Assembly: GCA_018302545.1 (NCBI GenBank)
Contig: JAGVZM010000003.1
Span: 111,680 to 175,679, forward strand
Reading direction: 5' to 3'
Length of the DNA: 64,000 bases
Source of the DNA: Candidatus Woesearchaeota archaeon
Lineage (GTDB): Archaea; Nanobdellota; Nanobdellia; SCGC-AAA011-G17; GW2011-AR18
In this document: positions 2,145 to 58,163 of the stretch, piece after piece
How the letters are laid out: each line of letters begins with the position of its first letter
Position numbering within the stretch: the first letter of the stretch is position 1
The notes under the pieces: model-generated
What the model saw: only the letters and a program-made list of their open reading frames with translations
What the model was told of the DNA's origin: nothing
Database searches by the model: none
Program-made: the position numbers and the translations under genes

Positions 2145-2807
2145 ATGGTAAAGATTTGTGGTATAGATGATGCTGGTAGAGGTCCAGTCATCGGTCCAAT
2201 GGTATTAGCAGGTATTCTAATAGATGAGAAAGACTTAGATAAACTAAAAGAATTGGGAGCAAAAGACTCTAAAGATTTAACTCCCAAACAAAGAGAATTA
2301 ATATATTCAAAGATAGTAAAAGAGTTTAAAATATACAAAATAGTGAAATCAACACCACAACAAATAGATCAAGCATTAAACTCTAGTAATTCAAATTTAA
2401 ATTGGTTTGAAGCAGACAAAATGATAGAAATAATCAATACTTTAAATCCAGAAAAAGTAATTATCGATTGTCCAAGTAATAATATTCCTGCATTTACAGA
2501 ATACTTAGAAAATAAAATAAAAACAAAAACCCAAATTATTTGTGAACATAAAGCAGATTCAAAATACCCTATAGTTGGTGCAGCTTCAATATTAGCAAAG
2601 GTAACAAGGGATGCAGAAATCGAAAAAATAAAAAAAGAATTAAGAGCCGATTTTGGTTCGGGCTATCCATCTGATCCCAAAACTAAAAAATTCTTAAAAG
2701 AGAATTGGAATAAATATCCAGGAATATTCAGAACAACTTGGTCATCATATAAAAATGTTTCAGAAGGTAAAAATTCTAAAAAACAAAAAACACTAGCAGA
2801 TTTCTAG
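2145..2807 (+). CDS. rnhB: Ribonuclease HII
   Basis: N-terminal ICGIDDAGRGPVIGPMVLAG catalytic motif, plus ASILAKVTRD and GSGYPSD motifs. The 220 aa length is typical for archaeal RNase HII. Confidence 0.9.
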   Translation: MVKICGIDDAGRGPVIGPMVLAGILIDEKDLDKLKELGAKDSKDLTPKQRELIYSKIVKEFKIYKIVKSTPQQIDQALNSSNSNLNWFEADKMIEIINTLNPEKVIIDCPSNNIPAFTEYLENKIKTKTQIICEHKADSKYPIVGAASILAKVTRDAEIEKIKKELRADFGSGYPSDPKTKKFLKENWNKYPGIFRTTWSSYKNVSEGKNSKKQKTLADF

Positions 2808-56417: not shown

Positions 56418-56837
56418 TTAAGAAATTATTTTCAAAAATTCTTCAGGTGATAATATTTTAATATCCCTAAATTTCTTAAGTACAAGTAAATGTTTTTTAT
56501 CATTACTAATTATGTAATCAACTTTTCCTTCTACAGCAGCCTCAATAAATTTATTATCGTCTGGATCGTTCTTAACTATAAACAATGTTTCTTTAGGATT
56601 AACTATCTTTGCCATTGTTAATAATTTTTGTAATAAATTAACTTTTGCTTGTTGATAAGCATCTGTTTTCTCTAAAATTTCTTCTGAGTAAATAATTTTC
56701 TCATATTCTTCAAGTATCGGAAGAGAAACAATAATTTTAATCTTATTTTCATTCACAAGTTTAAGAATTTGATAACTTGCTCCAGTCCAAAATGTTCCAC
56801 TTACAACTACATTTGTATCAAGGACAACAGTAATCAT
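56418..56837 (-). CDS. PIN-domain toxin (VapC-like)
   Basis: The VVLDTNVVVSG acidic motif, with DPDDNKFIEAA and ISNDKKHL. Confidence 0.75.
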   Translation of the reverse strand: MITVVLDTNVVVSGTFWTGASYQILKLVNENKIKIIVSLPILEEYEKIIYSEEILEKTDAYQQAKVNLLQKLLTMAKIVNPKETLFIVKNDPDDNKFIEAAVEGKVDYIISNDKKHLLVLKKFRDIKILSPEEFLKIIS

Positions 56838-56840
56838 AAT

Positions 56841-57104
56841 TTATCCTCTCTTTCTTATTTTATGAACCAGATCATTAACATCATCTTCTCTAATCTTTTT
56901 CTTTGCTTCTCTTAAAGGTTTAGTAACTTCTTCCCAAGAAATATCTTCAATTTTTTTAATAATTAAAGAATCTCCCTCTAAAAGAAAAATTATTTTTTCT
57001 CCTTCTTTTAAATGCATTCTATCTCTTATTCCACTTGGAATAGCTACTTGTCCTCTAACACTTACAGTTCCGGTTTCTACAGCTTCAGGCATTTTAACCT
57101 CCAA
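56841..57104 (-). CDS. AbrB/MazE/SpoVT-family antitoxin
   Basis: VSVRGQVAIPSGIRDRMHLKEGEKIIF is a swapped-hairpin motif. It lies 3 nt upstream of the PIN gene. Confidence 0.75.
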   Translation of the reverse strand: MEVKMPEAVETGTVSVRGQVAIPSGIRDRMHLKEGEKIIFLLEGDSLIIKKIEDISWEEVTKPLREAKKKIREDDVNDLVHKIRKRG

Positions 57105-57238
57105 TCTTGCTTATCTTATTAATAAGATATATCTTGTATTTAAACATTTGTATTGTACTTCATTTAACTAAAAATTTAAGAAATAATTTTTCCTAATTTT
57201 TTATCAAAATCAAGTGTGCGCTTTCTCTTTAAGGAGTA

Positions 57239-57421
57239 AAGCGCGGGGAGGGACTTTCCAACCTCTAGGTTTTTTGCGAACGTTTTTCCTAAAAAGGTTC
57301 TTTGAACCCCCACTCGGTTGCTATCTTCTTATTATAGTATAATTAAACCATAACAAGCTGCAGGTTCAGCTCTGTTTGCTCAAGCTTACAGATCAACTGC
57401 CTTACCGTTGGGCCACCCGCG
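57239..57421 (-). tRNA. tRNA-Asn(GTT) with three predicted introns (anticodon stem ~30/31, canonical 37/38, T-loop ~59/60)
   Basis: The minus strand reads GCGCGGG TG GCCC AACGGTA AGGC A GTTG [36 nt] C TTGTTA [28 nt] A GCAAC CGAGT GGGGG TTCAAA [47 nt] T CCCTC CCCGCGC T. Removing the bracketed parts gives a 72-nt cloverleaf with a perfect GTTGC/GCAAC anticodon stem and a 7-bp acceptor. Exact junctions are ambiguous by 1 nt. Confidence 0.65.
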
Positions 57422-57551
57422 CATTAAGAAAAAACATAAGAATTTCATTTATATAACTTTCTTTATTTTAAAATATAAAATATAGTCTCAAAACATAAGT
57501 TTAAAACAAAAACAACAAGTATAAAAATCAAAACATTAAAATTTTTAAATT

Positions 57552-58163
57552 ATGCTTGAAAATAAGAAAAGAAAAGAGGAAATATATAATTTTTTATTAG
57601 AAATAGCTCAGGAATTATCAAAAAGAAAATTAGGAGCTCTAATGGTAATAGCTCCTAAGAGAAAGTTTAACAAAATTTATGAACCTTTATATCCGCAAAT
57701 TATAGCTAAACATCAGATTTTTGAAAAGGGAACCAGAGAATTAATATTAAACCTTGCAGAGCTCGATGGAGCATTCTTAATTGGTGATGATGGTACTTTC
57801 GTATCTTTTGGAGCAAGAATAAAAAAATCAAAAGCTCTTCCAGGTTATGGAACAAAACATGCTGCTGCAGTAGGAATCACAAAGCATATTAAAAATTCAA
57901 GTGCTATTTTAGTTAGTGAGGAAAGTGGGTGGGTAAAAATATTCAAAGATGGTAAAATAGTTTTAGAATTAGATTCAACAAAAAAATCACCCCAATTAAT
58001 GCATAAAGTTGTAAATTTTATTACAGATAATGACACTGCTTTAATAGCAACTGCAGGAGTCTCAGCAGCAATAACTGGAGTTTTACCTATAGTTATTGTT
58101 TCTGGAACTTATTTAGCAATAAAAACCGCTTCTGGAATAATTAAAAAAAGTTTAGGAAAATAA
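57552..58163 (+). CDS. Diadenylate cyclase (DAC/DisA_N) domain protein with a C-terminal membrane anchor
   Basis: GALMVIAP, LDGAFLIGDDG, GTKHAAAVGIT and VSEESGWVKIF correspond to the DAC motifs (DGA, RHR-like, SEE-G). The C-terminal hydrophobic segment is ALIATAGVSAAITGVLPIVIVSGTYLAI. Confidence 0.7.
   Translation: MLENKKRKEEIYNFLLEIAQELSKRKLGALMVIAPKRKFNKIYEPLYPQIIAKHQIFEKGTRELILNLAELDGAFLIGDDGTFVSFGARIKKSKALPGYGTKHAAAVGITKHIKNSSAILVSEESGWVKIFKDGKIVLELDSTKKSPQLMHKVVNFITDNDTALIATAGVSAAITGVLPIVIVSGTYLAIKTASGIIKKSLGK

Follow-up and report, generated by a model that had tools for sequence, protein, structure and literature searches.

A probable three-intron tRNA-Cys(GCA) gene in a Woesearchaeota-type archaeon and the uneven intron content of its orthologs

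Archaeal tRNA genes carry up to three introns (PMC3239211, PMC4033280, PMC8450103), and multi-intron genes have been described in the Thermoproteales Pyrobaculum and Thermofilum (Sugahara 2008; Fujishima 2010; summarised in PMC4033280, PMC8450103). In the DPANN archaeon ARMAN-2 (Ca. Micrarchaeum), the pre-tRNA-Cys(GCA) contains a 13-nt intron at position 59/60 that is cut in vitro by an epsilon2-type splicing endonuclease, EndA (Fujishima et al. 2011, PMC3239211). In their survey, Kaneta et al. (2018, PMC5829648) describe EndAs of the alpha4 type, equipped with an L3 loop, from several DPANN lineages, include Ca. Woesearchaeota RBG_13_36_6 and Ca. Pacearchaeota RBG_13_33_26 with disrupted tRNA genes, and attribute incomplete predicted tRNA sets to hidden disrupted genes. 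Here we describe an interrupted tRNA gene in a 64,000-nt stretch of Candidatus Woesearchaeota DNA (contig JAGVZM010000003.1; hereafter the window). The gene occupies 183 nt of the minus strand, with G1 at 57422 and the discriminator T at 57240. The original prediction, whose coordinates (57239-57421) were one base off, took it for a tRNA-Asn gene with three introns. We conclude that the locus is very probably a functional three-intron tRNA-Cys(GCA) gene of a low-GC, Woesearchaeota-type DPANN archaeon. The gene adds one more case to a described archaeal class. Its novelty is confined to the lineage, to the joint occurrence of three sites within a tRNA-Cys gene and to the accompanying series of orthologs, the rest being known biology, and the current picture of archaeal tRNA splicing is unchanged.

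The original prediction was fair in describing multi-intron tRNAs as known chiefly in Thermoproteales, with a few cases in other archaea; DPANN examples are also published (PMC5829648, PMC3239211). As in the Thermoproteales, there are at most three introns of the bulge-helix-bulge (BHB) kind per gene, at canonical and non-canonical sites, such genes escape standard finders, and related intron sequences recur. Neighbouring introns may likewise need ordered removal, a situation described for closely spaced archaeal introns in the tRNAscan-SE 2.0 paper (PMC8450103). The Thermoproteales differ in being TACK archaea and high-GC thermophiles with a heterotetrameric EndA that has a Crenarchaea-specific loop, whereas the present gene belongs to an AT-rich DPANN archaeon from metagenome assemblies. 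The ARMAN-2 gene has the isoacceptor, the T-loop site at 59/60 and the superphylum in common with ours, as well as a relaxed BHB with the T-stem as outer helix. In contrast to the ARMAN-2 intron, the 59/60 intron of the window gene is 47 nt long and has a long inner helix and both flanking helices, so it is not of the hBH type; two further introns are present in the window gene, and the lineage is Woesearchaeota. The Woesearchaeota and Pacearchaeota genomes of Kaneta et al. come from the same or a neighbouring lineage and resemble ours in their marked disruption and multi-intron genes (PMC5829648). That survey was made with tRNAscan-SE 2.0 and presents a survey-level figure; the text used here contains neither a gene-level three-intron tRNA-Cys nor an ortholog intron series (PMC5829648).

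A cloverleaf forms from the window gene only after three excisions, at 30/31 in the anticodon stem, at 37/38 and at 59/60 in the T-loop. These three sites were already named in the original prediction and are borne out by the cloverleaf, the BHB structures and the orthologs, as are the perfect 7-bp acceptor halves (GCGCGGG/CCCGCGC), the D-arm and the GGGGG/CCCTC T-stem that it described; the T-loop is split as TTCAAA|T. Exon 1 (29 nt, 57394-57422; this and all following parts of the gene on the minus strand) comprises the acceptor 5' strand GCGCGGG, U8, G9, the D-arm, A26 and positions 27-30 (GTTG), and is followed at 30/31 by intron A (29 nt, 57365-57393, ATCTGTAAGCTTGAGCAAACAGAGCTGAA). Exon 2 (7 nt, 57358-57364) is CCTGCAG, which provides position 31 and loop positions 32-37 with the anticodon GCA. 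Intron B (35 nt, 57323-57357, CTTGTTATGGTTTAATTATACTATAATAAGAAGAT) occupies the canonical 37/38 site. Exon 3 (22 nt, 57301-57322) runs from A38 through GCAAC, the variable loop CGAGT and GGGGG to T-loop positions 54-59 (TTCAAA), where intron C (47 nt, 57254-57300) interrupts the T-loop at 59/60, as placed by its BHB, by covariation and by uninterrupted orthologs. Exon 4 (14 nt, 57240-57253) consists of T60, CCCTC, CCCGCGC and the discriminator T (U73). The spliced 72-nt product forms a perfect cloverleaf with a 5-bp anticodon stem, the 7-nt anticodon loop CUGCAGA, which has U33 and a purine at 37, and a discriminator U; it was called tRNA-Cys(gca) by ARAGORN. Against an average G+C content of ~28% in the window, the tRNA exons are conspicuous as GC-rich islands. 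A TATA-like box, TTATATAAA (57448-57456, minus strand), lies 26-34 nt upstream of tRNA position 1, and a purine-rich element, AAAGAAAG (57457-57464, minus strand), resembling a B recognition element (BRE), lies directly 5' of the box. Boxes similar to the TATA-like one were found at a similar upstream distance in all ten orthologous loci, preceded in most of them by a purine-rich stretch at a similar position; by the archaeal promoter consensus these elements are a putative BRE/TATA promoter. CCA is not encoded in any of the ten loci.

A BHB consists of two 3-nt bulges around a 4-bp central helix (H), flanked by an outer helix (h) and an inner helix (h'); in the central helix, intron positions -6 to -3 pair with the four exon nucleotides that stand before the final two of the exon, and each bulge is cut after its second nucleotide. 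BHB formation was tested by a motif scan of the 183 nt and by tabulating h, H and h' for each candidate junction. Intron A gave a strict motif (h 2 bp; H 4/4, CAGT/GCTG; h' 5 bp, TCTGT/ACAGA; bulges TG^A and AA^C), which also appears in the local minimum-energy fold. Its 5' site, GTTG|A, is the one originally proposed, and its 3' end, GCTGAA|C, lies seven bases earlier than proposed; by BHB structure and orthologs, the two intron ends that border exon 2 had each been placed 7 nt off. The correct lengths of these two introns are 29 and 35 nt rather than 36 and 28 nt, whereas the 47-nt T-loop intron and its junctions stand as first described. Intron B formed H with 3/4 pairs (CTGC/GAAG), a 10-bp h' (TTGTTATGGT/ACTATAATAA) and the bulges AG^C and AT^A; its outer helix is the 5-bp anticodon stem, which is available after removal of intron A. 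Canonical archaeal BHB introns at 37/38 were reportedly described by Marck and Grosjean in 2003 and by Thompson and Daniels, and the former are also said to have listed introns at 30/31. As in the canonical arrangement, loop nucleotides 32-35 pair with positions -6 to -3 of intron B and the bulges are 36-37-I1 and I(-2)-I(-1)-38; unlike it, the central helix has a G34.A mismatch in eight of the nine aligned genes, and the inner helix is offset in several orthologs. For intron C the outer helix is the 5-bp T-stem, H has 3/4 pairs (TTCA/GGAA), h' has 7 bp (AACCTTT/AGAGGTT) and the bulges are AA^G and AG^T. Thus intron A is a strict BHB with 4/4 central pairs, and introns B and C are relaxed BHBs with 3/4 pairs, correct bulges and flanking helices. 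When the introns were shuffled with the exons kept, the observed H and h' were reached in 10, 4 and 19 of 200,000 trials for A, B and C, respectively (P ~2e-5 to 1e-4 per intron).

Orthologs of the gene were collected by two routes. A D-arm pattern scan of species-representative genomes returned L005 ('archaeon isolate nzgw40') and L006 (Candidatus Woesearchaeota), and the same pattern in metagenomes returned L012 as the only ortholog, the other matches being mostly unrelated bacterial tRNAs, including genuine tRNA-Asn(GTT). The window gene adjoins a diadenylate cyclase gene (Pfam DAC, 57552-58163), and in L005, L006 and L012 the tRNA likewise adjoins a DAC homolog of ~70% identity. Further contigs were fetched through DAC homologs, giving a total of nine orthologs, all beside a DAC gene; L014 was left out for its short upstream sequence and L021-L023 for loss of synteny. 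The identical contigs L001-L004, from four public samples of the same population and with 100% identical tRNA, added no variation. All ten genes gave a 72-nt tRNA in which CCTGCAG is followed by A38 and the discriminator is T, so that the CUGCAGA loop and U73 are found in 10/10. Exon 1 is nearly identical across the nine orthologs, and the acceptor stems changed in a compensatory manner (GCGCGGG/CCCGCGC, GCGTAGG/CCTACGC, GCGTGGG/CCCACGC and GCGCAGG/CCTGCGC).

Intron content differed among these genes. Introns A, B and C are all present in the window gene (29, 35 and 47 nt) and in L012 (30, 38 and 48 nt). Only A and B are found in L006 (46 and 30 nt), L015 (23 and 39 nt) and L019 (31 and 24 nt), and only B and C in L016 (35 and 40 nt), L017, which equals L018 (37 and 32 nt), L020 (35 and 48 nt) and L024 (both present). 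L005 has intron B alone (16 nt). Intron B is therefore present in ten of ten genes, at 16-39 nt, and intron A is absent from five (L005, L016, L017, L020, L024), which read GTTGCCTGCAG instead. The T-loop TTCAAAT is intact in the four genes that lack intron C (L005, L006, L015, L019), and this fixes the 59/60 junction. The T-stem of L016, GTGGG/CCCCC, has a U50.C64 mismatch, unlike those of the other nine genes, which may be an assembly error in the Logan contig or a real variant.

Covariation was scored on register-anchored alignments of the junction regions by counting pairs under the BHB model, with shuffled and slid-partner controls. For intron A (five orthologs), 96.4% of the cells were paired and four inner-helix pairs were doubly changed; the score was reached by 0 of 500 shuffles and slid-partner controls were far lower. 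Intron C (five orthologs) had 92% of cells paired and seven doubly changed pairs, again with no match among 500 shuffles and far lower slid-partner controls. Its central-helix pair 57:intron(-6) occurs as A-U, as G-C and, in the window, as A.G. An internal hairpin is present in intron B of every ortholog, offset by internal loops in several, and the inner helix of the window gene is stacked over 10 bp; by its predicted folds, intron B is a relaxed motif in most lineages.

The same DNA can be spliced into a tRNA-Asn(GTT), with removal of 36, 28 and 47 nt and retention of CTTGTTA as position 31 and loop. This is how the gene was originally read, with the loop TTGTTAA, and the product is again a valid 72-nt cloverleaf: ARAGORN accepted it as tRNA-Asn(gtt), as it accepted the other splice product as tRNA-Cys(gca), and did not call the unspliced gene. 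The Asn route even keeps 3/4 central-helix pairs at the 37/38 junction. However, in both registers that yield the Asn product, H of its first intron has only 1/4 pairs and an inner helix is missing, and its second intron likewise lacks an inner helix, so that the BHB structure fits the Cys junctions and fails at the two junctions specific to Asn. Within intron B, TTGTTA makes up one strand of the 10-bp inner helix, and it is not conserved at the start of that intron (ATTACTC in L012, TTTATCA in L005, TTGCTAT in L016). GTTGCCTGCAG is contiguous in five orthologs, which identifies CCTGCAG as exon with the anticodon GCA and excludes the Asn splice, and the single-intron ortholog L005 was called tRNA-Cys(gca) by ARAGORN. 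The GCA anticodon and U73 are identity elements for cysteinyl-tRNA synthetase (CysRS), U73 being the conserved cysteine identity base; the window gene has U73, whereas bacterial tRNA-Asn genes met by chance carry G73. Taken together, these points leave practically no probability for tRNA-Asn. We likewise give next to no credence to alternative splicing, by which one precursor would yield both Cys(GCA) (29+35 nt removed) and Asn(GTT) (36+28 nt). Both products are valid cloverleaves from one DNA, and two loop-like heptamers, CCTGCAG and CTTGTTA, stand side by side; but the Asn route lacks a BHB, the second heptamer is missing from most orthologs, and by the identity rules a common tRNA body bearing U73 should be a substrate of CysRS and not of asparaginyl-tRNA synthetase. 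The resemblance of the heptamers arises because the 5' part of the intron and the loop have to pair with one and the same purine-rich 3' strand. The bacterial tRNA-Asn(GTT) genes from metagenomes (L008-L011, L013) share the exact D-arm TGGCCCAACGGTAAGGCAG with this tRNA-Cys; since they carry G73, D-arm similarity is no indicator of isotype.

A decaying or pseudogenised tRNA, in which the insertions are unspliceable debris and a functional tRNA-Cys is encoded elsewhere, would account for the failure of standard finders to call the gene and for the one central-helix mismatch in each of introns B and C. We nevertheless consider decay very unlikely. The exons are intact and near-invariant in ten lineages whose DAC neighbours share only 67-88% identity, acceptor changes are compensatory, the promoter is kept in the orthologs, the intron helices covary, the insertions are at exactly the same three positions across lineages, and the other two tRNA genes of the window are built alike. 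Several observations count against a functional three-intron tRNA-Cys gene all the same. ARAGORN called no tRNA in the window, and the Rfam tRNA model (RF00005) did not match the unspliced tRNA-Cys gene either at its gathering threshold or at E <= 10. Introns B and C have only 3/4 central-helix pairs in the window genome, and intron B in a strict stacked register was 74% paired, no better than shuffles. For intron C, a one-base shift of the register allows a 4/4 helix at the price of an 8-nt T-loop, and the 3' cut of this intron is therefore fixed by homology and not by structure alone. The D-stem pair 13:22 of the window gene is a C.A mismatch. A phmmer search of the 64-kb window with an M. 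jannaschii EndA query found no EndA, and Pfam scans of 40 open reading frames of the window, with ~28 of at least 110 aa outside the scan, gave no tRNA_int_endo hit. Expression and junctions, moreover, are predicted from sequence. It is this basis, together with central helices that are relaxed in introns B and C, that leaves us some doubt about the tRNA-Cys gene.

The failure of the finders, by comparison, is explained by the intron load and not by the exons, since orthologs without intron C do score with the Rfam tRNA model (L005 55 bits, L019 49.5, L015 44.9, L006 41.2), whereas every ortholog with the T-loop intron was missed by both ARAGORN and Rfam. The expectation that standard tools under-call such genes was thus confirmed in the window, where ARAGORN found 0/3 tRNA genes and the Rfam tRNA model 2/3. 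In L015 (306-439, minus strand) the ARAGORN intron option miscalled the two-intron tRNA-Cys as tRNA-Trp(cca) with one intron of 62 nt, which shows in practice how several introns can lead to the wrong isotype. The window gene is probably the sole tRNA-Cys of a reduced DPANN genome and is invisible to ARAGORN and the Rfam tRNA model, and a plausible manual reading of it leads to the wrong amino acid. Where DPANN metagenome genomes seem to lack tRNAs, the gaps may accordingly be artefacts, and both the BHB rule and orthologs need to be consulted to verify splice junctions.

From the observed exon-intron map, BHB geometry, orthology, covariation and promoter conservation, we infer how the tRNA-Cys gene would be expressed, by which enzymes and in which order it would be spliced, and that its product would be charged with cysteine. 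The conserved BRE/TATA promoter would drive a precursor of ~183 nt with exons of 29, 7, 22 and 14 nt, and each exon-intron pair would fold into a BHB. EndA, assumed from the literature together with its specificity, would cut each bulge behind its second nucleotide, the exons would then be joined by an RtcB-type ligase, and CCA would be added post-transcriptionally. The 183-nt precursor has a minimum free energy of -56.4 kcal/mol (z = -2.5), and conformers with the BHB of intron A or of intron C plus the acceptor stem lie ~5 kcal/mol above the minimum. In the BHB of intron A, nucleotides 23-28 (D-stem, position 26 and anticodon stem) are paired with the 3' end of the intron, so this BHB cannot form alongside a full anticodon stem, which serves intron B as outer helix; a bulge nucleotide of intron A is also an outer-helix nucleotide of intron B. 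Because of this competition, intron A would probably be removed before B, or B would be cut as a relaxed motif without its outer helix. Intron C, with the T-stem as outer helix, would be spliced independently of A and B.

The patchy introns among close relatives are the most useful by-product of the analysis. At each site the introns share sequence blocks across lineages (A, AAGCTT...GCTGAA; B, TTGCTAT...AAGAAGA; C, CCTTTCTT). L019 (A and B) and L020 (B and C) are sisters on the DAC tree, with 88% DAC identity and an identical 72-nt mature tRNA, and L017 (B and C) and L005 (B only) are sisters on the same protein tree, a lineage tree that rests on a single short protein. This distribution suggests a three-intron ancestor followed by repeated exact losses, or intron mobility; the reciprocal intron sets of L019 and L020 in particular would call for repeated exact loss, for example by recombination with spliced cDNA, or for mobility between genes. 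That intron turnover at three fixed sites of one Woesearchaeota tRNA gene is unusually fast and precise is a proposal we make tentatively, as rather less than an even chance. If true, such turnover occurs in a lineage whose relatives reportedly have only alpha4-type EndA with the L3 loop. The ten-genome series, in which every combination of intron presence and absence is represented, can be used to study gain and loss of BHB introns and the range of DPANN EndA. With the window gene, three-intron tRNA genes, the known archaeal maximum, are extended to Woesearchaeota, and a 59/60 intron in tRNA-Cys is now found in a second DPANN lineage.

Each of the window's three tRNA genes is interrupted, by six introns in total, as had been noted before (three in tRNA-Cys, one in tRNA-Ser(CGA) and two in tRNA-Arg(TCT)). 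The Ser and Arg genes were spliced by the same BHB rule, and ARAGORN accepted both spliced products. The tRNA-Ser(CGA) gene (12142-12049, minus strand), of type II with a long variable arm, has one BHB intron of 12 nt at 30/31 (AACCATGCTGAA, 12113-12102, minus strand) with H 4/4 (CAGC/GCTG) and the 3' bulge AA^T. The tRNA-Arg(TCT) gene (59636-59517, minus strand) has two, of 31 nt at 27/28 (59607-59577) and of 14 nt at 37/38 (59566-59553), both on the minus strand and with H 4/4. By these predicted junctions, the window genome uses orthodox BHB geometry. The Rfam alignment misplaced the first tRNA-Arg intron into the D-loop. The tRNA-Ser intron at 30/31 ends in GCTGAA, as does intron A of tRNA-Cys; this common end could reflect a shared origin by intron transposition or convergence, the latter because both tRNA-Ser and tRNA-Cys have C25-A26-G27.

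Other structures within the introns were also considered. An unrestricted BHB scan of the 183 nt yielded many chance motifs. One strong BHB-like motif (h 5 bp, H 4/4, h' 3 bp; window 57353-57381, minus strand; gene positions 42/70) was rejected as spurious: it is made of AGCT palindromes in intron A and at the border of exon 2 and intron B, would delete exon 2 with the anticodon, and is not conserved in the orthologs. It illustrates that BHB scans on their own can mislead. A C/D-box small RNA in the introns was rejected by eye, without a formal search: no consistent C box was seen, and the CUGA at the end of intron A is accounted for by pairing with C25-A26-G27. Self-splicing group I or group II introns were ruled out by the size of 29-47 nt.

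Downstream of the tRNA-Cys gene, an inverted repeat (GCGCTTT...AAAGCGC, window 57218-57244, minus strand) pairs a segment made up of the last four acceptor nucleotides, the discriminator and the 3' trailer with sequence farther downstream; comparable trailer hairpins occur in L020, L015 and L005, without full conservation among the orthologs, and the repeat could be a terminator or a 3'-processing element. In L020, a second Rfam tRNA (2641-2760, minus strand, 120 nt) lies ~0.8 kb past the DAC end that is far from tRNA-Cys. Its length matches that of the two-intron tRNA-Arg gene of the window, and the tRNA-Arg/DAC/tRNA-Cys neighbourhood may therefore be conserved. Other genes of the window include those for archaeal ribosomal proteins L1 and L10, for a TrmB regulator and for archaeal pilins. 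Directly downstream of tRNA-Cys are a PIN_3 toxin and a MazE/AbrB-type antitoxin (56418-57104, minus strand). In L012 tblastn gave no match to this PIN_3/MazE pair, and ~5 kb of other sequence is found there; the region 3' of tRNA-Cys is thus variable.

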